From positions 1 through 54,421 of the IMG/VR virus record IMGVR_UViG_3300021061_000218: a stretch of 54,421 nucleotides of DNA. One strand, written 5' to 3'. The notes beneath the pieces are model-generated. The model did not search any database and was not told the origin of the DNA. It saw nothing but the letters and a program-made list of their open reading frames with translations. The stretch is from a virus. Its lineage: Duplodnaviria > Caudoviricetes. Each line of letters begins with the position of its first letter. Position 1 is the first letter of the stretch. Below, piece by piece: positions 1 to 54,421 of the stretch. A program made the translations under genes and the position numbers.

Positions 1-408
1 GTCCCGGTGGATGCGGTACTGGCGTCTGAGCCGAAAGAAGGAGTCGCAACCCAGGATCTTCCGGTCACAAGCATCGGGAGCGATACGGCAATCTTCGACA
101 TCGGCTCCAACAGCGTGAAGCAGTACAAGGATGTCATCGCCAAGGCGGGCATGATCGTCTGGAACGGGCCTATCGGTTTCTACGAAGTCGAGGCGTTCGC
201 CGGAGCGACAAAGGAGCTCGCCACTGCCGTCGCAGCAGCCACTAAAAAGGGAGCCGTGTCCATTATCGGCGGAGGCGATACCTTGGATTTCCACGTCCGC
301 TACGGCTATCCCTTGGACGCCTACTCGTTTGTGAGTACCGGTGGCGGCGCGATGCTGGAGTTCATCGCCGGCAAAACGCTCCCGGCACTTGTGCCGCTTC
401 GGGCCTGA
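1..408 (+). CDS. pgk: Phosphoglycerate kinase, C-terminal part (truncated by window start); host gene
   Basis: DIG, VWNGPIGFYE, IIGGGDT, VSTGGGAMLEF motifs; ends in TGA. Confidence 0.97.
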   Translation, partial: VPVDAVLASEPKEGVATQDLPVTSIGSDTAIFDIGSNSVKQYKDVIAKAGMIVWNGPIGFYEVEAFAGATKELATAVAAATKKGAVSIIGGGDTLDFHVRYGYPLDAYSFVSTGGGAMLEFIAGKTLPALVPLRA

Positions 409-441
409 CGGGAGCCTAAATTCCTAGTATTATTCCAGCCG

Positions 442-2019
442 ATGATGACCGTCCAACTCCAGGTCCTCTTTCGGAAGGAAGAGGAGTCATGGTCGGCGTT
501 CGCACGGCGTGCCGTTGACGCGCATGGTGACGTGCTGCTCGTGCTCGGCGCATCGGAGGATTCACTGCAGCGGGAGGAACAGCGTCGTGCATTCCTAGAA
601 GAGATCGGCGCACATCGCACGCGAATCCGCCTGGCCACGCACGATGAAAGTCTCGCGGCGGCCGCCCGAAAGCATGGCGTGCGCGTTATCGAGAACACAC
701 GGGCTTTGCGGACGGCGCTCGCCGGACATGCGTCCATGAAGGAAGCTCTTCGGCTGTTCTCGCCGCAACTCTGGAGACAGGAATGGCGGTCGCGTCTGCA
801 GTCCATGGGCCTGCTTTCCCTTCCGAAACTGCGCATCTGGACGCTGATTCTGATGAGCGTCGGTCTCTTCCTGTTCGTGCTGTTCAAGCTGCTGCCGTCC
901 GCGGAAATCCGGATCTGGCCGCGAGGTGAAACCGCCAGCCAAACCACTAATATCTTCCTCGTCCAGTCCGGCGCGACGGTGCCGTCCCGCGCCCGCAGCT
1001 TGCCGCTGACACCCATCGACGTGACCGTACGCAAGTCGATCACGTTCGATCAAATCAGCAAACAATTCATCGGCACCAACGCGCAGGTCTCCATGACCGT
1101 CGTCAACAAGACGGACGAGGAAGTGTCACTGAAGGAGGGGACTCGCTTCGTGAACCAGGCAGGGATGGTGTTCAAGATCACGAAGAGGGCGACCGTGCCG
1201 CCGCAGGGGAAGATGGCCGTCCCTTCCAAAGCCGAGGATGAAGACATGTTCAACGAAATCATCGGAGAGCGCGGAAATGTTCCTGCCGGTTTGAAGTGGA
1301 CGATTCCGGCGCTCGATGCCGAGCTCCAGAAGGTTATCTACGGCGAGAACCGGGTGGCCGCCACGGGAGGTAGAACCGCCTATCGCACGGTATTGCAGCA
1401 GGGCGATCTCGACTTGGCTCGCAAGCGCCTGGAGCAGGAGCTGCTGGCGGAGGCGAGGAGTTTGGTGCAGGAAGAGCTCATCCAGATGAATCAGCGCGAT
1501 CCCACGCGGCAGCTCCGCCTGCTCTCCTACGACCAATTGGTGAAGCCGACCTACAGTGGTTTCGTGTTGCCGACGCATCAGTTGAATCAGCCCGTAAGTT
1601 CCATTTCCGCGCAGGGAACGCTGATCTACCGTGTCCTGGCGTACGACGCCCAATCCATACTGGACATCGTCGGCACCGATCTGATGGCGCACGTATCCGA
1701 CGGTAAGAAGATCATCGAGGACACGGTGAACGTCGATCACATTGAGCTGCGTGTGTTCGATTACGCCGATGATCTCTCCTGGATCAAGTCCACGGTAGAA
1801 CTGACGGCCACGGAACAGTACATCTTGGATCCGTTGACGCCGCCGGGAGCCAAATTCGCGAAGAAAATCCGCGACGCCGTGACAGGGGAGTCGAAGCAGG
1901 ACGCCCTGCGGATCGTGAAGAACCTGCCCGAAGTGGAGAAAGCCGAAATCAGCCTCTGGCCGCCCTGGGGAAACACGTTGCCCGACATTCCTTCGCATAT
2001 TTCCATCTCCATCGAGTGA
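442..2019 (+). CDS. Host single-TM hypothetical protein with baseplate-J-like middle region (type I recall as common in CPR genomes)
   Basis: 525 aa ORF with host-like codon usage; TM at ~130-150; GTRF, GERGNVPAG, TGG and C-terminal ISLWPPW..LP motifs. Confidence 0.65.
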   Translation: MMTVQLQVLFRKEEESWSAFARRAVDAHGDVLLVLGASEDSLQREEQRRAFLEEIGAHRTRIRLATHDESLAAAARKHGVRVIENTRALRTALAGHASMKEALRLFSPQLWRQEWRSRLQSMGLLSLPKLRIWTLILMSVGLFLFVLFKLLPSAEIRIWPRGETASQTTNIFLVQSGATVPSRARSLPLTPIDVTVRKSITFDQISKQFIGTNAQVSMTVVNKTDEEVSLKEGTRFVNQAGMVFKITKRATVPPQGKMAVPSKAEDEDMFNEIIGERGNVPAGLKWTIPALDAELQKVIYGENRVAATGGRTAYRTVLQQGDLDLARKRLEQELLAEARSLVQEELIQMNQRDPTRQLRLLSYDQLVKPTYSGFVLPTHQLNQPVSSISAQGTLIYRVLAYDAQSILDIVGTDLMAHVSDGKKIIEDTVNVDHIELRVFDYADDLSWIKSTVELTATEQYILDPLTPPGAKFAKKIRDAVTGESKQDALRIVKNLPEVEKAEISLWPPWGNTLPDIPSHISISIE

Positions 2020-2669
2020 TGCCGAGCATCGGTCGACTTTGGCGTTTCTTCTGGATGACAGTCCTGGGCTTGGTTGCACTCGCCGCGCTCACCTTCGGCG
2101 CAGTCCTCCTCTTCGTCGTGTCGCAGTTCGACGGTTCCGCCGATTTCCCTGCGGACTGCGGCGTGGTCTTCGGAGCCGCGGTCTGGCCCTCGGCCAAGGA
2201 CGCCAGCGGCGCGGTGGTCTTATCCCAGCCGGGGCCGGGGATTACCAGAAGGGTGCAGACGGCCGTGGATCTCTACAAGAACGGTCAATTGCGGCGCATT
2301 TTCGTCACCGGCGGCAGGGGAGACGGCATGCCGGAAAGTGAGGCGCAGGTGATGCGCCGTTTCGCGGTGCAACAAGGCGTGAAGCCGTCGGATGTGATGA
2401 TGGAGACGAATTCACACTCCACGGAGGAGAATATCGCCCTGACCCAAAACTTGACTTCCGACTGCTCCGATATCGTGGCGATCAGTGATCGCTATCATCT
2501 GGCTCGGATCTCCTACATTGCCTGGGTGGACGGTTGGCCTGTTGCCACGCATCCGGCCTCACGCGTGGCGACGAGACGCTTCGAAGTCTACAGCGTGGTG
2601 CGCGAGGCACTGGGAATCCTGCATTTCACGTTCGAGCGGATTACCGGCATCCGAATTCTCGAACCCTAA
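2016..2669 (+). CDS. YdcF/SanA (DUF218) family protein; host gene
   Basis: N-terminal TM, VVFGA, FVTGG, SEAQVM, SHSTEEN, SDRYHLAR, VRE motifs. Confidence 0.92.
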   Translation: MMPSIGRLWRFFWMTVLGLVALAALTFGAVLLFVVSQFDGSADFPADCGVVFGAAVWPSAKDASGAVVLSQPGPGITRRVQTAVDLYKNGQLRRIFVTGGRGDGMPESEAQVMRRFAVQQGVKPSDVMMETNSHSTEENIALTQNLTSDCSDIVAISDRYHLARISYIAWVDGWPVATHPASRVATRRFEVYSVVREALGILHFTFERITGIRILEP

Positions 2670-3139
2670 GAGTGTCGATCGGATTCGACAGCCCCTTGGA
2701 AGAGTTTTCCACAGGACGGTGGATACCGAGCTCGTTTCGAAGGGCGTTTATGTTAAGTATTAGGAGCTGCTCCCCGACCGGATTTCAGTATTCTTACTGT
2801 ATAGGCCGTTTCTCTAAGGTATTTTGGCACTTCTTCTATAAATGCCCTATAACGCGAGATCGTCTCTCGGACGACTCCGACTAGCCTGCCCCACGGACTT
2901 TTATGGGGTTCGCTCTAACTTTTTCCTCAGAGCGGGGAAGTCGGGGATGGGAGATGAAGAGGTGGGAAACCGAATGCATCTCGGTAGAAAACTCTCGAGT
3001 GGTGATCCGATGAGTGTTGATCATATGAATGATTATTCGTGCGTACGAATGAGGAGATATGTACGAGAGGAAACGGCAAAAGCAGCTCGGCTGTAGAGAG
3101 ACCATCCTGTTGACTGAAATGCCCTTGCATTTGAAATAA

Positions 3140-3167
3140 TGTTAACATAAAATGCATTATGTAAACC
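3140..3167 (+). other. dif-like recombination site (attL)
   Basis: TGTTAACATAA-AATGCA-TTATGTAAACC: 11-6-11 layout with inverted XerD-type arms; identity with the window-end copy begins exactly at the 6-bp core. Confidence 0.85.
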
Positions 3168-3277
3168 AAGCCCTAGACAGATCCCAACATTCCATAAGCC
3201 CGTCCCCCTCCTGCGACTCCCCCATCTTCCTAACCGTTGGGAGGGGCCGGCTACTTCATTCCACGTTGAGGCGTGGA
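3151..3277 (+). repeat. 127-bp direct repeat, copy 1
   Basis: Identical to 54295-54421. Confidence 0.97.
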
Positions 3278-3342: not shown

Positions 3343-4353
3343 ATGTTGACTCCCCTGTCCACCCCGAGGATCATTCTGAGTTCTATGATTATACCATCAA
3401 ATCCTCTCATGCAAGCTATCGAGAGATACCTGCAGTTCCTGAAGGCGGAGCAGAATAGATCCCCGCTCACGGTCCTGAGCTATGCCGATTCCCTCACGTT
3501 CGTCTGCAAGCACATTGGGGTCTCCTCCCCGCTGGAGATCAGCAAAGAGGTCGTGCGGAACTTCAAGGGGGAGCTGCATGAGTTTAAGAAGAGAACCGGT
3601 GGGCGGCTGTCTACTCGGACGAAGAACCACCACTTAACCGTCCTCCGTGCCTTCCTTCGCTACCTGATCCGGGAGGAGGGCGCCATTGTGTACTCGCCTG
3701 ACAATATCTCCTTGTTCCACGAGGAGGAGCGGCACGTGAAGTTCCTCTCGAAAGAGGAGATGCAGCGCCTCATCGAGGCCCCCAACAGGATGACAAGAGA
3801 GGGAATGCGGGACGCAGCCATGCTCAACCTCTTCTTCTCAACAGGACTCCGCCTCCAGGAGCTTCGCCTCCTCAATAGGGATGACGTGAACCTCGAGAGC
3901 TGTGAGATGAGCATTCGGGGCAAGAGAGGGAAGGTGCGGGTGGTCTTCCTCTCCCCATCCTGTGCGGAGGCGTTACGGGACTACCTTTCGGTGCGGATCG
4001 ACCAGCTCCCCGCCCTCTTCATTCGCAGGCTCGGGTCTGCTGCGTGGAATCCTGTTAAAGGGGAGGATTACCGCCTCTCCCGGCAGTGGATCAATCAGAT
4101 GGTGAAGAAGTACGCCCGTCAGGCGGGCATCACCTGCTCCCCCTCGCCCCATACGCTGCGCCACTCCTTTGCCACCGACCTTTTGAGTAACGGGGCGGAC
4201 CTGCGTAGCGTGCAGGAGATGCTGGGGCATGCGGATCTCTCGACAACCCAGATCTATACCCATGTGACGAACCCGCAGCTCAGAGAGACGCATAAGAAGT
4301 TCCATTACGACCCCCATCTCCCGAAGGTCACCCTGCCTTCTTCCGGGGCCTGA
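3343..4353 (+). CDS. XerC/XerD-like tyrosine recombinase (phage integrase); true start may be ATG 3385 or 3409
   Basis: RD..L.LFFSTGLR..EL, GKRGKVR, SPHTLRHSFATDLL.NGADLRSVQEMLGH...TTQIYTHV. Confidence 0.95.
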   Translation: MLTPLSTPRIILSSMIIPSNPLMQAIERYLQFLKAEQNRSPLTVLSYADSLTFVCKHIGVSSPLEISKEVVRNFKGELHEFKKRTGGRLSTRTKNHHLTVLRAFLRYLIREEGAIVYSPDNISLFHEEERHVKFLSKEEMQRLIEAPNRMTREGMRDAAMLNLFFSTGLRLQELRLLNRDDVNLESCEMSIRGKRGKVRVVFLSPSCAEALRDYLSVRIDQLPALFIRRLGSAAWNPVKGEDYRLSRQWINQMVKKYARQAGITCSPSPHTLRHSFATDLLSNGADLRSVQEMLGHADLSTTQIYTHVTNPQLRETHKKFHYDPHLPKVTLPSSGA

Positions 4354-10000: not shown

Positions 10001-10140
10001 ACCTTTAACTCTCCGAGGTCGGTGAGCTGCAGGGCTCCTGCCCCCAGGCTCTCCCTGATACCGGAAACGACACTCTGTGTGCCGGTATTGGCTCCGCCAC
10101 TGAGGACGTGGTGCGGTGTTGGATTCCGGTTAATGCTCAT
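7012..10140 (-). CDS. Large repeat-rich virion protein (tail fibre-like), 1042 aa
   Basis: A/G/T/D-rich with duplicated internal modules; in the late operon. Confidence 0.75.
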   Translation of the reverse strand: MSINRNPTPHHVLSGGANTGTQSVVSGIRESLGAGALQLTDLGELKVFLTGGAGSGGTSMTDDAAFTVGSGAITPAGGIYRSTRDSVDDGDAGALAMTQKRGLYTTIETPTGDSAMDDTNDAVRVNIVAGSSSGTEYTEDAAAAANPSGGMAMAVRADSLAGVTSADGDNIALRATDKGEVYVKHVDALTVTGVSTSAKQDTIIGHVDGIEGLLTTIDGDTGNISTKVDTLAGAVSGTEMQVDVLSSALPTGAATAAKQPALGTAGTASADVITVQGIASMTALKVDGSAVTQPISHGALTELAAAINSDKLDINIKTSDISFGGTSAADDADFTDGTTPGTPAMGVYESSPSSVTDGDLGVVGITETRRLKTSATIDAALPAGTNNIGDVDVLSSALPTGAATSAKQDTIIGHVDGIEALLTTIDADTSTLAGAVSGTEMQVDVITMPTVTVQATNLDIRDIDKASDDILVYANTAKDGSGTSYVPLVDADGHIQVDVLSGGGGGTQYTEDAAAAGNPVGTALNLIRADALAGVTSDDGDNVAARGTDKGELYVKHVDAIPVTDNGGNISIDDGGNTITVDGTVSVSGVATAASQAQQIAAEEAIQTSVELIDDAIKQDDAAFTPATTKVMMAGFEFDDGSPDSVDEGDAGAARMSANRNIYTTIRDAAGNERGVNVNASNQLAIAGPVTNAGTFAVQVDGSALTALQLIDDTVATLGTTTYTETTTKGNVIGAVRRDADTTLVDTTNEIGPLQMDANGRLKVEIFDSGDSHSVDWNGSQPVTGSGTATGALRVELPTNGTGVISTVTTVSTVSALGAGTTGPMKAEDVASAAGDQGVAIMAVRQDLPIANASVSNDGDYTTPIVDNFRKLWVAGTVPEDVAHIAGEALTVNGVRRIDTAATSAGTSGDWATMDASAEGAIWATLTPTTTSGCSIFRSIDLDESEEEVKATAGNVYGYYIFNAAASIHYLKFYNATAANTTVGTTTPVMTFPIPAGAAAHVGFPYPVSFSTAISAAVTTGLADNDTGAPAANACIVNIFYK

Positions 10141-10158
10141 TGGTGTTGGTGTTGGTGT

Positions 10159-10398
10159 TTAGAGCTTCTCCACGACCTTCTCCATTTCCTCGATGAGGAA
10201 CGTGATGCTTTCTATTTTTGCCTCCGTCTCCACAACCTCTGCCTCAGCCTTTGTCTTCGTAGATTGGAACTTCGACTGAAGGAGCCTCGTTGCGATGGCG
10301 AGTTTAATTTTCAGCTTATTGAGCTCCGCCTCGTTGTCCTTGAGGATGTTGAGGAGTTCTCCTTTTAGCGTGTCTGGGTGTGTGTATTTCGTATTCAT
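10159..10398 (-). CDS. Coiled-coil hypothetical protein
   Basis: 79 aa, coupled to its neighbours. Confidence 0.65.
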   Translation of the reverse strand: MNTKYTHPDTLKGELLNILKDNEAELNKLKIKLAIATRLLQSKFQSTKTKAEAEVVETEAKIESITFLIEEMEKVVEKL

Positions 10399-28001: not shown

Positions 28002-30506
28002 TTAGAGGCCCCAGCCGGCTCCCAGGATCTTCGAATGTCTGTCTGCCGGACGTCCCAAAAATCCATAACGATCCCGCAGTGACGCCGCTCTCTTCTTGGA
28101 CTTGCCGCCGCCTTGGGTCTGCAGGATGGCGTAGACCAGGGCGTCACAGTTGTGAGTTAACACACCATTGGCAAAGTACTCGGGCGCCCCCTCAACCGCT
28201 AGGGAGTAAACGGGAGATCTTCTTTCCTCTTCTCGCAAGCCCACCACAAACACGGGAGCAGTATCTTGTCTTTCTGAAGCGGCTTCTGGCGAAAGTCTTC
28301 TTGCAATGCTCGCAAGTACGGACTTCGTCATCTTTACCGCTTTGTCTACGGTCTTTTGCGCAGCAGGCTCGGGAGCAAAATTTTGCCCGGGGAAAGAAGG
28401 CAGTGAATTCTTCTTTGCATACGGAGCACTTGGCCCTAGCCCCCTTTCTTCCCTCCCAGCACTGTCGGCCATGTTCCCTGTGCCACCTTTTTCCTGCTTC
28501 TGTTCGGTGCCAGAGGCCTGCTGCAGGCCTGATGGATTCCAAGTGTCGGAGCATTCTTTCTGACGTTCCCCGGTGGCGCCTCCGGTGCTCGGCAGATGTA
28601 ATGCACTCCAGATTTGAGAGATCATTGTTGAGGGGGTTTTCATCTGAATGGTGGATGTGATAACCCTTGGGGATCGGTCCATTTTCTTTTTCCCAAATGT
28701 ATCGATGTAGGTAGAGAACAGGCCCTTTATTCTCTTTGTGAATCTGGAAATACCTCCGGTGATTGAGACGAGGACTGTCCGGGTAGCGGCGGAAGCGCAT
28801 CCCATCCAGTTCGAAGATTTCAATTTTTTGTTTTTGCATGTGAACATTATATCTCCATAAACGAGTGAATCAAGACGGGTAAATCCCGCTCCCTCTACCC
28901 AAACAGGGTGGTTGGGGGTCCCTGTAAGGGAGGTTCCATCCGAAAGACTTGCTGTGATTACGTGTGCAGAGGGATTCGTCATTCCTGCGGCGACAACCCT
29001 TCTCAGGCCCCTCCGGGTCGATACCAACTCGCCAGGCAGAATATCCTCGATAGTCTTTGGCCCCTTGGAAGTTTCTACCATCGTTCCAGGAACTAGGCAC
29101 ATATCATCGTGCTTCCCTCGTGGGAACGACAGGATCTCGTGCATGAAATCCCCCAGGTAGGGCGCTCCCTCCCGGAGGATCACTCTGCCGGCCTGGACGT
29201 ACCCTGACGCAGCCTGGGCCCTCTGCAGCTTCGACTTTCCAATCTCTGTGAGCGGGTCTAGCGGCATCACGGGCAGGGCGCTCTCTTTCCGAAGCGCCTG
29301 CAAAACGGATGTCCCGGATACCCTGTCCTCAATCATCACCCGGGAGATCGGGAAGTGATTGCTCCAGTGCTCGTGCAGGTTGTACATCTTCTGCTTCAAG
29401 TCAGGGAAGTTCAGGTGAGCACGATAGACGTCTGCAATGAAGAGGCCGTCTTTGGTGACGTAGGCTGTCACGCACGCCGAGTAGTCACTCTCCTCCTTCT
29501 CGGTTAAGGCCGTGTCCCAGATCTGGATCCCCCTCGTAATCTCGTCTGGGTGCGGGAGCCTGCCATATCTGAACCAACCCTCCTGAAAGACATCCCCTTC
29601 GGCAGAGGTGGGACGCTGCTGATAGAGAGCGTTCCACTGCCTTGGGGTTAAGACCGACTTCGTGTCGTTCAAGGCAACAGCATCGAATCTCTCCGGCCAG
29701 AGCGGCTCCCCCACGGGGCGCTTTAAGGGGTCATTGTCTTCAGCGAAGGCCGGGAGGTTGATGACCGTCCAGTTACCCGGGTTCTGCTCGAGGATACGGC
29801 CGACGAGATCGTCTTCATGCCAGCGGGTGCACATCACAATGACCGCTGCGCCTTTGTGTAATCGTGTGTAGGCCACGGAGGTGTAGAAGTCCCAGACCTT
29901 GTCCCGCATCACCTCCGAGTCGGCTTCTTCGCTGTTTTTGATGGGGTCATCGATGATCAGGAGGTCGGCTCCCCTACCCGTGAGTGCTCCTCCGACACCA
30001 ACAGCTGTCAACCCCCCTCTCCTCCCTCCGATGTCCCAGCTCTGGAGCTTTCTTCGCTCTGGGTCGACAGAAACTGCGGCTCCGTCCTCCGTCAAAGCAC
30101 GGAGAGAGGTCTTGCCGAAGATCACTTGGAACTCGGGCCCCTCGATGACACTTCTCACCTGCCTCGAGAAGTCTTCTGCGAGTTCTGCTCCGTACGAAAC
30201 CTGAACAACTTTTTTGTCCGGGTTACGCCCGAGGAACCACGCCGGGAAGCGGATGGAGACTTTCTCACTCTTCCCATGTCTCGGCGGGAGCGTGACGATC
30301 AGCCTCCCAATCCCCTCCTTGCCCTCCGTTGCTACATATCTCTCTACCTGTTCCAATTTCTCATTCAAGAGATCCTGGTGCCGGGCATTCTGATAGCCCG
30401 GGAAGGTGAACGTGGTGAAATCCCGCAGGTGACGTCTTGCGAGCTCTCTCCTGGCTAAGATCGAGCGGATCTCGTCAGGCGTTGGGAGTTTCTCTTGTGT
30501 GGGTAT
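28002..30506 (-). CDS. terL: Terminase large subunit with intein; probable ATA start at 30506
   Basis: PPRHGKS Walker A, LIIDDP Walker B, TRWHEDD, YQQRP, WDTA..DYS, FP.GKHDD/DA; frame open upstream to a TAA at 30519-30521. Confidence 0.95.
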   Translation of the reverse strand: MPTQEKLPTPDEIRSILARRELARRHLRDFTTFTFPGYQNARHQDLLNEKLEQVERYVATEGKEGIGRLIVTLPPRHGKSEKVSIRFPAWFLGRNPDKKVVQVSYGAELAEDFSRQVRSVIEGPEFQVIFGKTSLRALTEDGAAVSVDPERRKLQSWDIGGRRGGLTAVGVGGALTGRGADLLIIDDPIKNSEEADSEVMRDKVWDFYTSVAYTRLHKGAAVIVMCTRWHEDDLVGRILEQNPGNWTVINLPAFAEDNDPLKRPVGEPLWPERFDAVALNDTKSVLTPRQWNALYQQRPTSAEGDVFQEGWFRYGRLPHPDEITRGIQIWDTALTEKEESDYSACVTAYVTKDGLFIADVYRAHLNFPDLKQKMYNLHEHWSNHFPISRVMIEDRVSGTSVLQALRKESALPVMPLDPLTEIGKSKLQRAQAASGYVQAGRVILREGAPYLGDFMHEILSFPRGKHDDMCLVPGTMVETSKGPKTIEDILPGELVSTRRGLRRVVAAGMTNPSAHVITASLSDGTSLTGTPNHPVWVEGAGFTRLDSLVYGDIMFTCKNKKLKSSNWMGCASAATRTVLVSITGGISRFTKRIKGLFSTYIDTFGKKKMDRSPRVITSTIQMKTPSTMISQIWSALHLPSTGGATGERQKECSDTWNPSGLQQASGTEQKQEKGGTGNMADSAGREERGLGPSAPYAKKNSLPSFPGQNFAPEPAAQKTVDKAVKMTKSVLASIARRLSPEAASERQDTAPVFVVGLREEERRSPVYSLAVEGAPEYFANGVLTHNCDALVYAILQTQGGGKSKKRAASLRDRYGFLGRPADRHSKILGAGWGL
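28192..28839 (-). CDS. HNH homing endonuclease nested out of frame inside the intein
   Basis: LHRYIWE..NGPIPKGYHIHHSDENPLNN..SNL plus two CxxC...CSxxC zinc modules. Confidence 0.9.
   Translation of the reverse strand: MQKQKIEIFELDGMRFRRYPDSPRLNHRRYFQIHKENKGPVLYLHRYIWEKENGPIPKGYHIHHSDENPLNNDLSNLECITSAEHRRRHRGTSERMLRHLESIRPAAGLWHRTEAGKRWHREHGRQCWEGRKGARAKCSVCKEEFTAFFPRAKFCSRACCAKDRRQSGKDDEVRTCEHCKKTFARSRFRKTRYCSRVCGGLARRGKKISRLLPSG
28846..28873 (-). promoter_or_regulatory. Sigma70-type promoter for the nested HNH gene (leaderless)
   Basis: TTGATT-16-TATAAT, then 6 nt, then ATG 28839. Confidence 0.65.
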
Positions 30507-30840: not shown

Positions 30841-31025
30841 GAGAAAGAGAGACGAGAGAGAGGGAAGAAAGAAAGAACCAAAGAAAGAAGTCCAGAGAGA
30901 GGAGAGAGAAAGAGCCCCTAGCTCTTTCGAATCTCCTCCTGTTCTCTAGAGTACTTAAAACAGTTAAATACAGGCGTTAGACATGATAGTCATGGCTAAC
31001 GCTTTTCTTTTGTTACTTTTCTTTT
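30841..31025. repeat. Bipartite homopurine mirror-repeat element 1
   Basis: Long mirror 30841-30914 with GAACC loop; hairpin 30974-31002; short opposite-strand mirror TTTTCTTTT-GTTAC-TTTTCTTTT 31003-31025. Confidence 0.85.
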
Positions 31026-31113
31026 AAACGAGCACACAATTGCGCCAATCTCCATTGAAGCAGGAGGTTAAAGTACGTTCAAAGAGACGAACACAAAAGT
31101 TACTCAGGAGAGT

Positions 31114-34217: not shown

Positions 34218-34490
34218 GTTCTGGTTGTCATCACCGCCAAGCAGGTCACACCGTAAGACTCAACCTGCACACCTCAATCGGACTAGAGAGCGCTACGTGC
34301 CAAGCGTAGCACATGAGATAGGAACGACTATCGTCCTCATTGCCTCGCTCTTGTCGCCACTGAGGGAAGAATAAGCTGCACCACTCGGTGCCGCTTTCGC
34401 TTCCCTCTTTTTGCCGTTCCACATTCCTGTGTGGGACGAGTAACTTCCTTGGTCCTTCGGACCTCGGAAGAACGCCCATCCGGGCGAACT
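34207..34490 (+). ncRNA. Structured leader RNA / possible attenuator
   Basis: Successive hairpins including GAGGGAAG/CTTCCCTC plus T5 and a cUUCGg loop; no convincing ORF. Confidence 0.5.
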
Positions 34491-41157: not shown

Positions 41158-41340
41158 TCAGGGCAGACGGATATTATCAGAAAACCACAGATCTCGCAAT
41201 TTACGGATCCGAGGTTTGTTATGAAACATGAATGCCCAAACTTCACGCTTGTTGAACGTCCCGATTTTTCTGTATTCAGTGTATTTGTATCCCATCCGCA
41301 CCAGTGAGTGCGCTAGTTCTCCGTCTTCAATTGGCAGCAT
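41158..41340 (-). CDS. Hypothetical protein
   Basis: 60 aa, overlaps the upstream stop. Confidence 0.55.
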   Translation of the reverse strand: MLPIEDGELAHSLVRMGYKYTEYRKIGTFNKREVWAFMFHNKPRIRKLRDLWFSDNIRLP

Positions 41341-41704
41341 CTGGTGTTGGTGTGGGGGGCGGAGGTGGCGGTGGTGGACTGGCGTACGTCTGAATTCCCA
41401 TCTGCTGAATTTCTTCGAACGTCGGGAAGATGTCTGTCGGGAATTGCAGAGAGTCGTTCCACGGGAACGTGATGCCCCGGGGGAATAACAGCCGCCTGTT
41501 CCTGCGAGCTCTGTCTGGCGTCACTTCGAGGTAGCCTTTCTTCACGAGTGCCTTGAGCTTGATGCCGTAGGCCTTGTCCTTGCCGCCGAGGAAATCGGCC
41601 AGGTCCGCTTGCGTGGGTGAGAAGCGGAACCGGAACTGGATCATCCTGACGGCGTAGAGAATTTGCTTCTCACGCTCTGTGAGCTCGGGTTTGATGTTCG
41701 ACAT
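41327..41704 (-). CDS. LexA-like winged-helix regulator (DNA-binding domain only)
   Basis: LTEREKQIL...SPTQADLA...LKALVKKGYL...R; no peptidase domain. Confidence 0.8.
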   Translation of the reverse strand: MSNIKPELTEREKQILYAVRMIQFRFRFSPTQADLADFLGGKDKAYGIKLKALVKKGYLEVTPDRARRNRRLLFPRGITFPWNDSLQFPTDIFPTFEEIQQMGIQTYASPPPPPPPPTPTPDAAN

Positions 41705-41812: not shown

Positions 41813-41972
41813 AAAAAGAAAGTACCAAAGAAAAATTAATACTGTTATTAAACTGTTTTTATACTAGATACTTAAAACCCTAAGAGGGGTTTTAAGTATT
41901 TCTCTTTTGCTTCTCTCTCTTCTTCTTTCTTTTGGTACTTTTCTTTCTTCTTCTCTCTCTTCATTTTCTCTT
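41813..41972. repeat. Bipartite homopurine mirror-repeat element 2 (candidate origin)
   Basis: Short mirror 41813-41835; 13-bp inverted repeat 41868-41899; long mirror 41900-41972 with GGTAC loop. Confidence 0.9.
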
Positions 41973-42125
41973 AAACACGTCGAAAAAAGTGGTGCCCCCG
42001 CAGTAACTTCCTAACCGCTATGGCTGTTGCCAATGCAGTGAAGGCTACTACGCCTTCGTTGCTCGGGAGCACCACTTTGCTTCCGTCGCACTAGTGACAG
42101 CGGTTAGGAAGCATTAGCAAGATAC

Positions 42126-42173: not shown

Positions 42174-44012
42174 TTATTTGCCTGTTTGTAGTGCGTGCGC
42201 CACGTTCGCAGCGTCATCGCTAGACCCCTCAAGTCGGAAGGACGAATGCTTCCAGTCGTAGATCATGTTCAATCTCACACGACGCTGGAGCGTCTTGCTC
42301 TTGCGAACATCGACGATGCAGTGCGGGTCGTAGGTGCCAAGAGACTTGTTTCGGCTGATCAGGATCGACACGTCTGCGGACTGGTTCAGCGGCCCCCCGC
42401 CCTCGAACGGGATATAGCCCTGCTGTTCGTGCAGGTCGGTTAAGCCTTCTTTGCCGAGCTGACACACGTCGATGATGGCAACGTCATGCCGCTGGGCGAG
42501 TGACTGCAGGTTCTTGCCGTACTCTCTGGCCCAGTTGTAAACCTCGGGCTTCATGTCGATCATCTGGCTGTAGTCCAGCATGATGAAGTCCACGCCCCCG
42601 TCGGTCTTCGCCTTCGCAATCAGGTCTTCCATCTGGCGCAGGGAGTTGCTGGTGTGACGCACGTCGAAAATCTTCAGGCCAGAATAGATTTGCAGCGATG
42701 CCTCTGACGGGCTTCGCTTCTGCTCCAGGATGTCCATGTACTTGCAGCCAAGCTGGATCGAGATCAGGTGGGCCAGGACTTCGGTGGTGTCCACTTCGGT
42801 CGAGAAGATAATGCCCCGGTAGCCACTGCGAAGCAGCTGGTCTGCTAGGAAGTAGCCGAACTTGGATTTGCCGGTGCCGAAGAGCGCCCCGATGCGGGTG
42901 ACTTTCTTGCGAGCCAAAAGCCGGAACGGGGTGAGCTCCGGATTGATGTGCAGACAGTTCGGCGGGGAGGACTGGAGTTCCTTCAGGATCTCCTCGATGC
43001 CGTACGAGGTGTTTTCGGCCCCAGGCTTCTTGTCGATTCTGACCTGCGGGTAGTGGTCCTTGAACCAGAAGAACGTGTCTCGGGTGGAGAGGCCTTTCAC
43101 CGCCTTCACGAACTCGAACGGCGCAAAGCCGTTCGCAGTCTTCGGGATGTGGTCAGAGCCGCCGTGCATGACGATATTTCGTTCTGGAATTATGTAAGTG
43201 GCCTTGTGCTTGCCGCCGGAGGGGTCCCGGAAATTCTTGCCATTCGGCATTAGCTCCCAGCCCATTACCCGGCAGACAATCTCGCTTATCGGCAGCTTTT
43301 GGATAGCATTGTAAGTATCATTGCGAACTTTGTCTTCGGGTGGCGAAGATTGAGCCGCAGTCTCACGCCTCTCAGTGATACGTCTCTCCCCCGTCGCAAC
43401 CATCTCCGAAAGACTTATTTTCGTATCCTGGAACTTTAGGATCCTAACTTGCGATGGGGGGTTGTGCTTTCGGTTGAAGGATCCCGGCAGCCGTCCGATA
43501 CGGGCAACGTTCACACACGAATTATCAAGCTTCTCATCGGTAAGCAGCTCCGCCTGTTCGATGAGCACCCGGAGGCCTTCTTTCCAGGCATTTTTGTCTG
43601 AAATCTCTATGGCTTGTTTGCCAAAGTAGTAAACATGAATGCCGTTCCCGGAGAAAATTATATATCTCCATTTCGCCAAGACCGCATCTGCGCTGAGGAG
43701 CTCAGGGAGCGTGTTCTCGCCCCAGTAGACAATGTCCTCGTCTTCAAGATATGGCGAGCCTTTGCGGATATCGAAGTCGAAGTAGAAATAGTTCTTGAGC
43801 TTGATATCGTCATCCTCGGCCCTCTCGTTCCTAATGCCCGGGGAGTCTTTAACCCCCGCCATAAAGAACAAGTTGCTTCTTGGATTTGCCTCCACGAACT
43901 TCTCGAGCTCCTGAGGAGACCAGCTTTTTATACAAGCATCGACCCTGTTCAGTGGGCCTGCCTGGATGACGCAACCGGGAAGTGAAATGTCTGTCAGAAA
44001 CTTCTGCAGCAT
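42174..44012 (-). CDS. Primase-helicase fusion (AEP/RepB-like primase plus DnaB-like SF4 helicase)
   Basis: YFDFD, SGNGIH.Y, RLPGSFN.K; Walker A GALFGTGKS, MLDYSQ, CQL, QSAD. Confidence 0.88.
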   Translation of the reverse strand: MLQKFLTDISLPGCVIQAGPLNRVDACIKSWSPQELEKFVEANPRSNLFFMAGVKDSPGIRNERAEDDDIKLKNYFYFDFDIRKGSPYLEDEDIVYWGENTLPELLSADAVLAKWRYIIFSGNGIHVYYFGKQAIEISDKNAWKEGLRVLIEQAELLTDEKLDNSCVNVARIGRLPGSFNRKHNPPSQVRILKFQDTKISLSEMVATGERRITERRETAAQSSPPEDKVRNDTYNAIQKLPISEIVCRVMGWELMPNGKNFRDPSGGKHKATYIIPERNIVMHGGSDHIPKTANGFAPFEFVKAVKGLSTRDTFFWFKDHYPQVRIDKKPGAENTSYGIEEILKELQSSPPNCLHINPELTPFRLLARKKVTRIGALFGTGKSKFGYFLADQLLRSGYRGIIFSTEVDTTEVLAHLISIQLGCKYMDILEQKRSPSEASLQIYSGLKIFDVRHTSNSLRQMEDLIAKAKTDGGVDFIMLDYSQMIDMKPEVYNWAREYGKNLQSLAQRHDVAIIDVCQLGKEGLTDLHEQQGYIPFEGGGPLNQSADVSILISRNKSLGTYDPHCIVDVRKSKTLQRRVRLNMIYDWKHSSFRLEGSSDDAANVAHALQTGK

Positions 44013-44112: not shown

Positions 44113-44158
44113 TTGAAAAAAATGTCGAAGCGTGCTAAGATGTTCGCACTTCCTAACC
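44113..44158 (+). promoter_or_regulatory. Promoter plus leader motif (a divergent partner lies at 44023-44045 on the minus strand)
   Basis: TTGAAA-17-TAAGAT, 6 nt, then ACTTCCTAACC. Confidence 0.7.
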
Positions 44159-44167
44159 GTTCATTCC

Positions 44168-44494
44168 ATGCAGCTTGAGGTAGAATTTAGCCCGCTCGGT
44201 GACCATGTGCTTGTCGAGCCTTTAGACAAGACGCAGGTGACGGCGTCGGGCATTGTCCTCACGGCAGCAGCGAATGACGAGATGCCGGAACAGGCCACTG
44301 TCGTTGCCGTCGGGAGGGGCGGAACGTACAAGGACTGTCCGGATCCCTCACAGTTTCTCACGGACGGGCAGACCGTAGTGATCAACAAGTGGGCCGGCGA
44401 GGAGATGAAGATCAAAGACCTGCAGGGCAAGGAGCACACGTTAAAGCTCCTGCACCTTGCGCAGATTTACGGTATTTCGAAGAAAACGAAGTGA
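44168..44494 (+). CDS. groES: Co-chaperonin GroES
   Basis: PLGDHVLV, TASGIVL, VVAVG.G, KWAG.E. Confidence 0.92.
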   Translation: MQLEVEFSPLGDHVLVEPLDKTQVTASGIVLTAAANDEMPEQATVVAVGRGGTYKDCPDPSQFLTDGQTVVINKWAGEEMKIKDLQGKEHTLKLLHLAQIYGISKKTK

Positions 44495-45288
44495 GTCCTG
44501 TCGATCTTTCACAGAAACGCTGTTTCGTAGACAAGAGGTTCTATCCGCTCGTCCATCCGGAGACCGGGGAGAGCAAGAAGGGCCCCTCTGTCACCACTAT
44601 CCTGGATTTCGTCCGTGAGAAGGGATTTCTGGACCAGTGGGAAAGCGAATTCATTGAACTGTGGGGAGTCGACGGCTACAAGAAATTCCTCGAAAAGAAA
44701 GCCGCTGAAGGGACCATGCTCCACTCGCTGATAGAGCTCTATCTGAATCGAGTGTTGCTGAAGGACCCCACCCCGATCGAATGGACGGAGGGTATCTCCG
44801 GTTTTGTCTGGAAGAAGTTCCTCAACTTCAAAGCTTGGTTCGAGGAGCATCGACCGAACATCCTCTGGATGGAGCGAACAGTGCAGTCTTGGGAACTTGG
44901 CTACGGCGGGAGGGCAGACCTCGGCCTAGAAATGACCAGGGACACTGACGACTACAAGAAGGGGCAACTCTTCGTCCACGATCACAAGTCATCGAAATCT
45001 GCGACGTCGAAACATCTGGAACAGGATGCAGCCTATATCTACGCCCTGGAAGAAGAGACGGGGCTGAAGTACCACGGAGTTGTAGTGCCGTTTGGAACGC
45101 CGACGAGAAAGGGTTACAAGCCGGTCTACGTGCGCCGTGATGTCCCCTACCAGAAGGGAAAGACGAAGTCTGAATACGAGTATTACCTAGAGGCGTTCCT
45201 CCTGAAAAAGAAGCTCTTCGATCACTACTTCGACGAGATGTTGCCGGAGGATCAGTGGCTGGATGTGTTTGTTACCCCGAAGTTCTGA
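44491..45288 (+). CDS. PD-(D/E)XK phage exonuclease
   Basis: PSVTTIL, GT.LH..IE, YGGRADL, DHKSS, Q.AAY. Confidence 0.85.
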   Translation: MSPVDLSQKRCFVDKRFYPLVHPETGESKKGPSVTTILDFVREKGFLDQWESEFIELWGVDGYKKFLEKKAAEGTMLHSLIELYLNRVLLKDPTPIEWTEGISGFVWKKFLNFKAWFEEHRPNILWMERTVQSWELGYGGRADLGLEMTRDTDDYKKGQLFVHDHKSSKSATSKHLEQDAAYIYALEEETGLKYHGVVVPFGTPTRKGYKPVYVRRDVPYQKGKTKSEYEYYLEAFLLKKKLFDHYFDEMLPEDQWLDVFVTPKF

Positions 45289-46196
45289 TGTTCAAGAAGT
45301 ACCCGCACCTTGAAAGATTCGGCACGGATGAAGTGGAGGATATCCAGTTCGGCGAGTGCTATGTCTTCCCGAAGATCGACGGCACGAACGCCCAGCTGTG
45401 GAGCGAAGAGGGATTGCTAAGAGCAGGCAGCCGCAACAGAACGCTATCACTCGACAGTGACAATGCTGGCTTCTGCGCCTATGCGGTCTCGAATCAAAAG
45501 ATTGTGAAATTCTTAGAGAACAATCCACAATTGCGCCTCTTTGGAGAGTGGCTCGTCCCCCACTCGCTTAGGACCTACAGAGAGGAGGCCTGGAGGAAGT
45601 TCTACATCTTTGATGTCGCAACGGTGACAAGAGAGAGCGGAAATGACGAGCAGATCTATTTCATGCCCTACGGAGAGTACAAACCCCTCCTTGAGGCCGC
45701 CGGCCTCGACTACATTCCGGCGCTCTGCAAGATCACGAATGGCACTCTAGAGCAGTTCGAGGAAATGCTAGAGAAGAACACCTTCCTCATTAAGGACGGA
45801 GAAGGATTCGGCGAAGGCATCGTTATAAAGAACTACGCCTTCAAGAACAAGTTCCATCGAACCACCTGGGCAAAGATCATTCGCAATGAGTTCAAAGAGA
45901 CTCACGCTCACGCCTTCCGGTTGGCAGCGATAACCGGACAGAAGCTCCTTGAAGAAGAGATTGCAAAGGAGTTCGTCACGAAGTCTCTTGTGGAGAAGGA
46001 ATACGAGAAGATCAAGCTAGAGGATGGATGGAGCTCGAAGCTCATTCCCCGCCTCCTCAACACCGTCTTCCACAACATCGTGACAGAGGAAACGTGGAAC
46101 ATCTTAAAGAAGTACGAGTCTCCGAAGATCGACTTCAAGATGCTGCGCACCTACACATACAGGGTAACGAAAGAAGTTGCTCCCCATCTATTTTAA
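45288..46196 (+). CDS. RNA ligase, Rnl2-like
   Basis: KIDGTN (motif I), GSRNR, LFGEW, FYIFD, EGIVIKN, WAK. Confidence 0.88.
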   Translation: MFKKYPHLERFGTDEVEDIQFGECYVFPKIDGTNAQLWSEEGLLRAGSRNRTLSLDSDNAGFCAYAVSNQKIVKFLENNPQLRLFGEWLVPHSLRTYREEAWRKFYIFDVATVTRESGNDEQIYFMPYGEYKPLLEAAGLDYIPALCKITNGTLEQFEEMLEKNTFLIKDGEGFGEGIVIKNYAFKNKFHRTTWAKIIRNEFKETHAHAFRLAAITGQKLLEEEIAKEFVTKSLVEKEYEKIKLEDGWSSKLIPRLLNTVFHNIVTEETWNILKKYESPKIDFKMLRTYTYRVTKEVAPHLF

Positions 46197-47590: not shown

Positions 47591-47845
47591 ATGTCTAAGA
47601 AGAAAGTCGAAAAGAAGAAGCCCGCAGTTGCGCAGCCTCCTGTGGCACCCGAGAAGAAGGCTCCTCAGACTCTAGAAGAGCACATCCATTTCGCTATCGA
47701 TGATGAGCTCTTAACGCTCCGTGAGAAGTACAAGATCGACAACGGGTCCATCTTCGCTCTCCAGATCATTCGCAACCAGAATAAGCAGCTCTCCTTCTTC
47801 CTGCGCCAGAGCCAGGTGAAGGCTTCCCAGGTAAATCAGAAGTGA
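47591..47845 (+). CDS. Hypothetical protein
   Basis: ATG after a pyrimidine-rich leader. Confidence 0.7.
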   Translation: MSKKKVEKKKPAVAQPPVAPEKKAPQTLEEHIHFAIDDELLTLREKYKIDNGSIFALQIIRNQNKQLSFFLRQSQVKASQVNQK

Positions 47846-48366: not shown

Positions 48367-48785
48367 CGCCGCTGCGATTCAGAGGGTGGAATATAGACAA
48401 TAAGGAGATGGACAATTTTGGTGATTACCTTTATTGGTTTGAGGAGAGAGGTATTGCGAGTGAAAAAGAAATTGGGATTTATGGATGGGTCATCATGCAA
48501 TCCACCGGCCTGAAGGACAAGAACGGGGTGGAGATATTTGAGGGGGATATCGTCGCTGACAGATTCCCGGCGGGGGAAGATATCGGAGAGGTCAAATGGG
48601 GAAACTTTTATGATATGGACGGCGAGTATTACCCGCAGATTAGTGGGCATCACGTACAGTGGCACAAGAAATGCTATGCCCCGAGCGATGAAACATTTAC
48701 CGATCATCTGTTGGGGCAGGTTAAGGCTCTGGAGGTGATAGGGAATATCTACGAGAACCCAGAGCTCCTTCCCGCCGCCAAATGA
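48363..48785 (+). CDS. YopX family protein
   Basis: FRGW, MQSTGLKDKNGVEIFEGDI, EVIGNIYENPELL. Confidence 0.93.
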   Translation: MTPLRFRGWNIDNKEMDNFGDYLYWFEERGIASEKEIGIYGWVIMQSTGLKDKNGVEIFEGDIVADRFPAGEDIGEVKWGNFYDMDGEYYPQISGHHVQWHKKCYAPSDETFTDHLLGQVKALEVIGNIYENPELLPAAK

Positions 48786-49288
48786 GCCCAGCCCTCTCTT
48801 CTCCCCTACCGGGATTTGGCGAGATGGAGTTCGCTCCTATTGATGTGGAGCGGTGCGTCATTGTGGACCTCGATGGCACACTCTCTAATCCCAAGAGCCG
48901 TATCCATCTTGTAACCGGAACAAAGAAGAAGGACTGGGATCAGTTCTTCAAAGAGGCCATTAATGACCCAGCCCACCACTGGTGCGTCCATCTCGTACGG
49001 ACTCTCTATCTCTGTGGCTATGACGTGAGCATTGTGACGGCACGGCCGGAGCGATGCCTGGATGACACGCTGGCATGGCTAGAGAAATACGGAGTCACCT
49101 ACGACACGATCTTCATGCGGAAGGATGGAGACAGGAGGCCTGACCATGTCGTAAAGAAGGCCATCTTCTTAGAGCACCTCCAAGGCAAGAACATTGAGTT
49201 CGTGATCGATGACCGGGAGGAGGTGGTGAAGATGTGGAGGGGGCTTGGATTGCAGTGTCTTCAGCCGAATCCTCACGACTTTAATTAA
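48782..49288 (+). CDS. HAD phosphatase, polynucleotide kinase 3'-phosphatase domain-like
   Basis: DLDGTL, TARPE, MRK.GD.RPD..VK, DDR..VV.MWR. Confidence 0.9.
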   Translation: MSPALSSPLPGFGEMEFAPIDVERCVIVDLDGTLSNPKSRIHLVTGTKKKDWDQFFKEAINDPAHHWCVHLVRTLYLCGYDVSIVTARPERCLDDTLAWLEKYGVTYDTIFMRKDGDRRPDHVVKKAIFLEHLQGKNIEFVIDDREEVVKMWRGLGLQCLQPNPHDFN

Positions 49289-54264: not shown

Positions 54265-54311
54265 AGTTTACATAGTGCGGAATAGCGGAAAGATAATGCA
54301 TTATGTAAACC
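54265..54311. other. Composite dif-like attP
   Basis: AGTTTACATAG-TGCGGA-ATAGCGGAAAGAT-AATGCA-TTATGTAAACC. Confidence 0.7.
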
Positions 54312-54421
54312 AAGCCCTAGACAGATCCCAACATTCCATAAGCCCGTCCCCCTCCTGCGACTCCCCCATCTTCCTAACCGTTGGGAGGGGCCGGCTACTT
54401 CATTCCACGTTGAGGCGTGGA
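54295..54421 (+). repeat. 127-bp direct repeat, copy 2 (probable assembly overlap at a circular/tandem junction)
   Basis: Identical to 3151-3277 and runs to the end of the window. Confidence 0.95.

Follow-up and report, generated by a model that had tools for sequence, protein, structure and literature searches.

Since the 1980s it has been debated whether living cells put H-DNA, the intramolecular DNA triplex, to any selected use, and the structure is mostly treated as a hazard. Here we describe a composite element built of mirror repeats in the 54,421-nucleotide virus record IMGVR_UViG_3300021061_000218 (Duplodnaviria; Caudoviricetes; "the window" below means this whole stretch of DNA), in which two mirrors of opposite strand polarity enclose a spacer and hairpin-forming repeats. 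It is present twice: copy 2 (41813-41972) lies beside a gene for a primase-helicase, and copy 1 (30841-31025) lies upstream of the large terminase gene. The closest described sequences are H-motifs, for which the part of PMC11667243 covered here gives mirror symmetry as the sequence requirement for H-DNA, and with which the mirrors in the window share strict purine/pyrimidine strand asymmetry, mirror symmetry and a 5-nt centre (PMC11667243). All four mirrors are homopurine/homopyrimidine, mirror-symmetric and interrupted by a short spacer, the sequence definition of an H-motif. Such symmetry is meaningless for a protein dimer on duplex DNA and exactly suits a fold-back triplex. Known H-motifs, however, are mostly eukaryotic tracts or cloned repeats that have been studied as obstacles or as sources of instability, whereas the phage elements keep a fixed asymmetric GGTAC-type centre across unrelated phages, are usually single-copy and lie beside the most meltable DNA; in this prophage the mirrors are, moreover, paired with opposite polarity.

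Several kinds of replication origin offer further points of comparison. The oriV of IncQ plasmids (RSF1010) carries the single-strand initiation signals ssiA and ssiB on opposite strands beside an A+T-rich region. IncQ plasmids resemble the prophage in having a primase like the archaeo-eukaryotic primases (AEP) and a DnaB-like hexameric helicase, and the N-terminal domain of the prophage protein matches RepB' of RSF1010 in fold (E 3e-5). The likeness is one of logic only: primase and helicase are fused in the prophage, unlike in IncQ, and the sites are unrelated in sequence, ssiA and ssiB being hairpins and not mirrors; RepC binds iterons, whereas neither iterons nor an initiator were found here. 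The origins of Staphylococcus aureus pathogenicity islands (SaPI), of lambda and of Gram-positive phages are defined by iterons bound by an initiator. Copy 2, together with a mirror in another prophage (L017, below), resembles these in position (the SaPI pri-rep-ori arrangement, the lambda ori inside gene O and the ori of Gram-positive replisome organisers). We know of no published phage or satellite origin that is built on a mirror repeat. RNA-based origins (ColE1 RNA II, and the extrachromosomal mycobacteriophage prophages treated in the covered part of PMC7157519) are similar in that a promoter and a candidate structured RNA of ~130 nt are aimed at the large mirror of copy 2, where read-through would yield purine-rich RNA prone to form a stable hybrid; they differ in that the candidate RNA seems to stop at a U-tract short of the mirror, and no such RNA is evident at copy 1.

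Intrastrand triplex motifs, made of three consecutive blocks, are abundant and non-random in bacterial genomes (Holder et al. 2015, PMC4666352). GGTAC-centred three-segment repeats that we found in bacteria (see below) are of the same general kind, although the main-text sections covered characterise the G/C-rich purine-motif TMECO and do not mention a T/C-rich GGTAC form (PMC4666352); the phage elements lack the third block of such motifs. No published description of a phage mirror element of this type was found in a literature search that covered main texts, mostly from outside the subscription journals. New here are the fixed GGTAC-type centre, the paired design with opposite polarity, the measured link to minimal duplex stability and the three-segment bacterial variant.

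The large mirror of copy 2 consists of a perfect 24-nt homopyrimidine core, CTTCTCTCTCTTCTTCTTTCTTTT (41910-41933) and TTTTCTTTCTTCTTCTCTCTCTTC (41939-41962) around GGTAC (41934-41938), extended to full arms (41900-41933 and 41939-41972) that are symmetric at 33 of 34 positions; the cytosines are spaced 4, 3, 2, 2, 1, 1, 1, 2 outward in both arms. Direct reading and a script scan bear out the preliminary description of this mirror as having a perfect 24-nt core and 34-nt arms with one mismatch, and likewise of a 9-nt mirror around GTACC on the other strand with a perfect 13-bp inverted repeat between the two (41813-41899). Both strands of the inverted repeat contain the decamer TACTTAAAAC, which also occurs in the spacer of copy 1 and within the window is confined to the two composite elements. 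Copy 1, in which an AACAGTT-type stretch lies between this decamer and a second hairpin, shares the architecture of copy 2 and little of its sequence, and is inverted relative to it both on the chromosome and with respect to local transcription. Each composite joins two mirrors of opposite strand polarity, and the window holds two composites and four mirrors rather than one copy per genome.

On the purine strand the four mirrors have the centres GTACC, GTACC, GAACC and GTAAC (GGTAC twice, GGTTC and GTTAC on the pyrimidine strand), as had been claimed. The accompanying statement that these are all such mirrors in the genome does not hold: a fifth purine mirror, with 9-nt arms set 5 nt apart around GTCGA, makes the count four out of five; it lies in coding DNA and is probably a chance occurrence. 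A conserved stem between small and large mirrors was considered and rejected as weak, the small mirror of copy 2 being 81% complementary to the centre of its large mirror over 21 nt and that of copy 1 only 73%, with unmatched centres, at distances of 91-117 nt.

Mirror symmetry in the window exceeds chance. We counted 12 mirrors with arms of at least 9 nt and spacers of 0-12 nt, six of them purine-only or pyrimidine-only, against means of 2.2 and 0.1, respectively, in 30 first-order Markov simulations whose longest arm was 12 nt. The composites also coincide with easily melted DNA: nearest-neighbour energies place the least stable segments of the 54 kb, at lengths of 40, 60 and 100 bp, all between the mirrors of copy 2 (41830-41869, 41816-41875 and 41813-41912, each ranking first), and the last of these has -113.0 kcal/mol against a mean of -146.7 (standard deviation 7.2) for the window. 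Copy 2 therefore qualifies as a DNA-unwinding element by nearest-neighbour calculation, the one measure applied, and the spacer segment of copy 1 (30929-31028) ranks third among the least stable 100 bp.

The mirror recurs in unrelated viruses. The central 21-mer of the large mirror matched 21 loci in the viral collection, in DNA ranging from 26% to 59% GC and comprising ~16 contexts by eye, compared with 2 loci for a control with direct-repeat arms and 4 for a control with a reversed centre. Perfect arms continued beyond the 8 nt forced by the pattern: five contexts reached 27, 18, 17, 16 and 13 nt, and most others 9-12 nt, whereas all four reversed-centre controls stop at 8 nt. When a second scan of viral contigs left five pyrimidine positions free on each side, 23 loci in 17 distinct contexts were recovered; symmetry at the free positions is perfect in 16 of these 17, the exception resembling coding DNA, and every one of the eight informative cases, in which mirror and direct order can be distinguished, is in mirror order. 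The looser pattern Y8-GKTWC-Y8 gave 19 matches in 15 other viral records as against two for its built-in backwards control, with one copy in 11 of the 15 records and two in the remaining four; one viral record (G015) pairs a GGTAC centre with GTTAC, the centre of the small mirror of copy 1. A comparison of the 15-mer CTTTTGGTACTTTTC with its reversed-centre control was discarded as weak, both giving, among the matches listed, mostly chance occurrences in coding DNA, which indicates that the GGTAC-mirror class is rare.

Mirror symmetry that is kept while the arms differ, around one asymmetric centre, is a sequence-level sign of a selected structure. The preliminary description had proposed a cis element defined by its structure, and had suggested searching phage databases for paired mirrors flanking a hairpin. 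Its first point stands, as unrelated viral contigs keep the symmetry around GGTAC with differing arm sequences; in the viral scans described above, most records contain a single mirror and no pair.

Eight other phage records were analysed whole (G003, G004, G005, G006, G008, G010, G012 and G013). The least stable 100 bp of the entire genome lies within ~260 bp of the mirror in five of them (G003, G006, G008, G010 and G013); the DNA beside the mirror falls within the least stable 1.4% in G004 and 4.1% in G005, both very A+T-rich, whereas G012, at 9%, does not show the association. Four genomes (G004, G005, G008 and G010) have the mirror within ~1 kb of the cumulative GC-skew minimum, with a minus-to-plus switch in gene direction within ~1.5 kb in the first three and ~2 kb in G010. 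Tandem or iteron-like repeats are frequent in the flanks of the mirrors. The complete 39-kb phage G013 (L481) carries two GGTAC mirrors 134 bp apart in direct orientation (10069-10223), each preceded by a unit of conserved CCAATAAATAAAG and a TA run, at the least stable DNA of that genome.

Gene neighbourhoods are varied. Besides the terminase genes discussed below, neighbours of the mirror include an integrase-like gene (G008), GroEL (G004), an HNH endonuclease gene (L015) and RusA with lysis genes (L007). At positions 1500-1595 of the prophage L017, a 9-10-nt purine mirror around GTACC sits inside a gene for a DnaD-like replisome organiser, followed by (TAATGC)5.7 and three CCGATTCG-type repeats, and a DnaC-like gene comes after the DnaD-like gene. 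Some phages have their origin inside the replisome-organiser gene, and the L017 site may be such an embedded origin. The mirrors show no constant orientation with respect to the nearby terminase gene (two one way, three the other), which fits a DNA-level rather than an RNA-level signal and led us to reject an RNA-level signal for the late operon.

The mirror lies beside meltable DNA, in few copies and in either orientation, features that together point to a role in unwinding or opening at the level of DNA. The design looks like a DNA-opening site, and possibly a replication origin. We tentatively favour, as a serious possibility that stops short of being probable, an H-DNA-prone unwinding or origin module with copy 2 as the candidate lytic origin. 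Negative supercoiling would fold the mirrors into H-DNA, leaving half of the purine strand of each single-stranded; because the paired mirrors have opposite polarity, the exposed stretches would lie on opposite strands on either side of the meltable spacer, which the triplexes would help to hold open. Copy 2 would then be the lytic origin, or at least its DNA-unwinding element, and the exposed strands would provide sites of entry and priming. From this arrangement we infer that a triplex may form in the cell, that the helicase may load at the element and that replication may start there.

The enzyme encoded next to copy 2 suits such a role. Its C-terminal half matches DnaB_C in Pfam (E 1.3e-9), and profile matches in PDB are to DnaB only; the AlphaFold model of residues 1-335 of this 612-aa protein has a mean predicted confidence (pLDDT) of 85.7, and the best Foldseek matches of these residues are the AEP domain of S-2L PrimPol (E 2.3e-6) and, as noted above, RSF1010 RepB'. 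An AEP fold joined to a DnaB-like half justifies the name primase-helicase that this neighbour had been given at the outset.

Other observations speak against a dedicated partnership between element and enzyme. A profile scan for relatives of the helicase recovered one viral locus (G001) and 26 metagenome loci, and neither a single-protein scan of viral contigs nor a scan of genome contigs recovered any. G001, the nearest viral relative, is a complete 52.5-kb genome with a helicase 35% identical to that of the prophage and the same order of helicase and then LexA-like gene; the interval between these genes contains only a promoter-like site, and the few pyrimidine runs of at least 18 nt in G001 resemble ribosome-binding sites. 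The 26 metagenome loci likewise show no mirror beyond weak 10-11-nt matches. As the mirror is absent from every helicase relative found, the enzyme family works without it.

That absence weighs against an origin module at copy 2, and so do several other observations. Copy 1 lies away from the replication genes, upstream of terminase, and no iterons that could serve as initiator-binding sites were found at copy 2. Elsewhere, terminase genes lie downstream of the mirror in L005, L009 and L016, and 5 kb downstream in G005, while none of four large genomes annotated around the mirror has a recognisable replication gene within ~6-7 kb of it (terminase, portal, integrase-like and GroEL genes occur there instead). 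Four of the eight phages analysed whole (G003, G006, G012 and G013) have the mirror away from the skew minimum, and since skew follows gene direction, skew minima are in any case weak, confounded evidence of an origin; in the window itself, where skew tracks gene direction too, the cumulative minimum is at ~39 kb as compared with 41.9 kb for copy 2. The arms of many viral mirrors span only 8-12 nt, short by the standards of stable H-DNA, and our pattern searches sampled arms of the T4-C type only.

Coordinates of the features discussed are collected in Table 1.

Table 1. Parts of the two composite elements and other features of the window (positions on the 54,421-nt stretch).
Feature	Position	Strand	Details
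Copy 2, small homopurine mirror	41813-41835	+	23 bp; AAAAAGAAA-GTACC-AAAGAAAAA; arms 41813-41821 and 41827-41835; sequence reading and script scan
Copy 2, A+T-rich spacer	41836-41867		32 bp; core of the least stable duplex of the window (nearest-neighbour energies)
Copy 2, perfect inverted repeat	41868-41880 and 41887-41899		13 bp; ATACTTAAAACCC / GGGTTTTAAGTAT; 6-nt loop
Copy 2, large homopyrimidine mirror	41900-41972	+	73 bp; centre GGTAC; 34-nt arms
Copy 1, large homopurine mirror	30841-30914	+	74 bp; centre GAACC; 31 of 35 columns match in the mirror alignment, one gap
Copy 1, first hairpin	30908-30928		GAAAGAGC-CCCTA-GCTCTTTC; overlaps the end of the large mirror; read from sequence
Copy 1, spacer	30929-31002		contains TACTTAAAAC (30952-30961), AACAGTTAAATACAG and the hairpin GCGTTAG...CTAACGC (30974-31002)
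Copy 1, small homopyrimidine mirror	31003-31025	+	TTTTCTTTT-GTTAC-TTTTCTTTT
Fifth purine mirror	47597-47619		9-nt arms; 5-nt spacer; centre GTCGA; inside an open reading frame
Primase-helicase gene	42174-44012	-	612 aa; N-terminal AEP (Prim-Pol / RepB'-like) fold, C-terminal DnaB-like
LexA-DNA-binding-domain-like gene	41327-41704	-	downstream of copy 2; Pfam LexA_DNA_bind, E 1.1e-6
Candidate structured RNA	41978-42112	-	~130 nt; between helicase gene and large mirror
Leader motif CTTCCTAACCRYT	3226, 31301, 31388, 34208, 38389, 41134, 41705, 42007, 42099, 44020, 44149, 46965, 54370		weaker sites at 34489 and 36046
Tyrosine integrase gene	3343-4353
Large terminase gene	28002-30368	-	contains an intein (Hint and intein-splicing domains after residue ~423)

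The window is an integrated prophage (3151-54421) preceded by a bacterial flank (1-3150) that encodes the end of a phosphoglycerate kinase and a DUF218 protein. Positions 3151-3277 and 54295-54421 are identical, att-like repeats of 127 bp, and contigs of 51,156 bases in two soil metagenome runs, from which this DNA may derive, begin exactly at base 3151; assembled contigs from three soil metagenome runs span both copies of the element and show no variants. The CheckV completeness of 49% is probably too low, given the 52.5-kb length of a complete relative. The large terminase gene heads a leftward series of structural genes. Encoded at 44132-46196 and 48782-49288 are a GroES-like co-chaperonin, an exonuclease, an RNA ligase and a polynucleotide-kinase-type phosphatase domain, of which the last two may form an RNA-repair set. 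No tRNA genes were found, and Rfam 15 families gave no match at the gathering score in the window or in 15 element-bearing loci. Searches by DNA revealed no close relatives among cultured phages, for this prophage or for two other mirror-bearing loci, and protein searches returned distant DnaB and terminase matches only.

Promoter-like sites lie near both copies. The 13-nt motif CTTCCTAACCRYT occurs 15 times in the window, as against 1.2 occurrences expected, mostly 7-9 nt behind promoter-like sites of the form TTGAAA-17-TAnnAT, and several copies directly precede an ATG. The motif resembles either a conserved leader of transcripts that lack a Shine-Dalgarno sequence or an operator, possibly one for the LexA-like protein. 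The repeated 13-mer at copy 2 is this promoter-linked leader, found across the prophage, and so is not an iteron. A reading of copy 2 as a miniature inverted-repeat transposable element was likewise dropped, its flanking inverted 16-mers being copies of the leader motif.

Copy 2 lies ~200 bp downstream of the primase-helicase gene and upstream of the LexA-like gene. A promoter-like TTGACT-16-TATCTT (42146-42119) points leftward into the candidate RNA, whose predicted fold (-65.4 kcal/mol, z -6.7) was equalled by none of 200 shuffles. The leader motif at the 5' end of this RNA pairs with an inverted copy at 42007-42019, and a terminal stem is followed by U6 (41988-41983), ten bases before the large mirror. 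Beyond the small mirror comes a second promoter and leader, immediately 5' of the LexA-like gene, whose likely ATG at 41704 stands directly behind the leader CTTCCTAGCCACT. On the plus strand, a hairpin at 41866-41901 with a T-rich tail is terminator-like by consensus scan, but it runs antisense to the genes around it, and only 4 of its pairs are G-C. Divergent promoters at ~31314 and ~31388 place copy 1 between a leftward promoter and the terminase operon.

A related form of the mirror is widespread in bacteria, where at least 125 loci in genome contigs show the core pattern. Among the matches listed, 91 of 124 distinct bacterial contexts carry a third block: a purine arm, ending in GTAC, whose bases exactly complement the second pyrimidine arm. 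The order is pyrimidine arm, GGTAC, mirrored pyrimidine arm, loop, complementary purine arm, GTAC. With this complementary arm, one strand could fold as a hairpin and take up the first pyrimidine arm as a third strand. Watson-Crick stems of 11-27 bp, mirror arms of 7-23 nt and 36 distinct arm sequences occur among the matches listed, and single assemblies of Selenomonadaceae, several Melainabacteria and relatives, Clostridia and Bacteroidota hold multiple copies (L356-L435 and further). These three-segment repeats, which match no Rfam family, constitute an unexplored class whose members may fold as single-strand triplexes. By the same script criterion, a purine arm adjoins the mirror in none of the 17 distinct viral contexts, and none was found after 41972 or before 30841 in the prophage; two viral loci from other scans (L019 and L120) do carry it, by eye.

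The bacterial form raises the question of whether the prophage merely acquired two copies of a selfish repeat, akin to repetitive extragenic palindromic (REP) sequences, that have no role of their own; the bacterial relatives would fold into intrastrand triplexes or hairpins and spread inside their genomes. The abundance of the three-segment repeats, their multiplicity within assemblies and the lack of the element in relatives of this phage all agree with such an origin, which we nevertheless regard as quite improbable, given that the purine arm is wanting in the viral contexts just mentioned and that viral records are mostly single-copy. Viral copies also favour divergent intergenic regions, in 5 of 13 intergenic cases compared with 3 of 89 bacterial ones among the matches listed, and the two prophage copies, alike in architecture and hardly in sequence, are not recent transpositions; neither terminal repeats nor target duplications were seen around them, the flanking inverted 16-mers being leader motifs. 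An unselected by-product of low complexity is the least credible explanation, one we would be surprised to see confirmed: slippage can lengthen purine and pyrimidine tracts, and any microsatellite-like tract has mirror symmetry trivially, but the arms of copy 2 are not simple microsatellites, having the same irregular cytosine spacing on both sides, and chance growth accounts neither for symmetry around a fixed asymmetric centre in 16 of 17 viral cases nor for the failure of reversed-centre controls to extend.

Two functional alternatives draw on the gene neighbourhood. Each composite could be a two-sided transcription barrier or insulator. At copy 2 it would keep the helicase gene and candidate RNA apart from the repressor-like gene, and at copy 1 it would isolate the terminase operon from the leftward promoter; the first mirror met from either side would yield a purine-rich transcript and an R-loop-stabilised triplex. 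H-motifs do stall RNA polymerases, with a bias toward purine RNA, in the part of PMC11667243 covered here, the opposite polarity within each composite would supply the two-sidedness, and the positions fit: copy 2 falls between the terminator-like end of the candidate RNA (41988-41983) and the promoter of the LexA-like gene, and copy 1 between the leftward promoter (start ~31314) and the terminase operon. We still think a barrier unlikely, since one placed before the terminase operon requires an anti-termination device, for which no candidate was identified, a single unpaired mirror is usual in other phage records, the mirror in L009 is upstream of the promoter-like site of terS and hence outside the transcript, and the link to the least stable DNA is left unexplained. 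A packaging-related site, whether a pac/cos accessory or a terminase-binding region, is suggested by copy 1, ~470 bp upstream of the large terminase gene, by the viral mirrors upstream of terminase in L005, L009, L016 and, at 5 kb, G005, and by the HNH endonuclease gene that adjoins the mirror in L015. This we consider very unlikely: 11 kb separate copy 2 from the terminase gene, the mirrors face either way with respect to terminase genes, no packaging gene is near the mirror in G008 or G004, and a protein site has no need of mirror symmetry.

The H-DNA-prone unwinding or origin module remains the reading that we favour, with the reserve stated above. A wider proposal, to which we grant only a slim chance, is that GGTAC mirrors form a natural family of triplex elements, in which the phage form, a mirror or an opposed pair beside the most meltable DNA, would be an initiator-independent origin opener where an AEP-primase/DnaB enzyme could enter and prime, as happens at ssiA and ssiB of IncQ plasmids, and the bacterial form would reach the same fold from one strand. 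The element offers a compact natural test case, in which unrelated phages preserve triplex symmetry about one fixed centre, next to the DNA that melts most easily. If it opens DNA for replication, it would represent a new origin design and a useful part for phage and plasmid engineering; and if the family as a whole acts as an origin opener, it would give H-DNA a selected function in prokaryotes.

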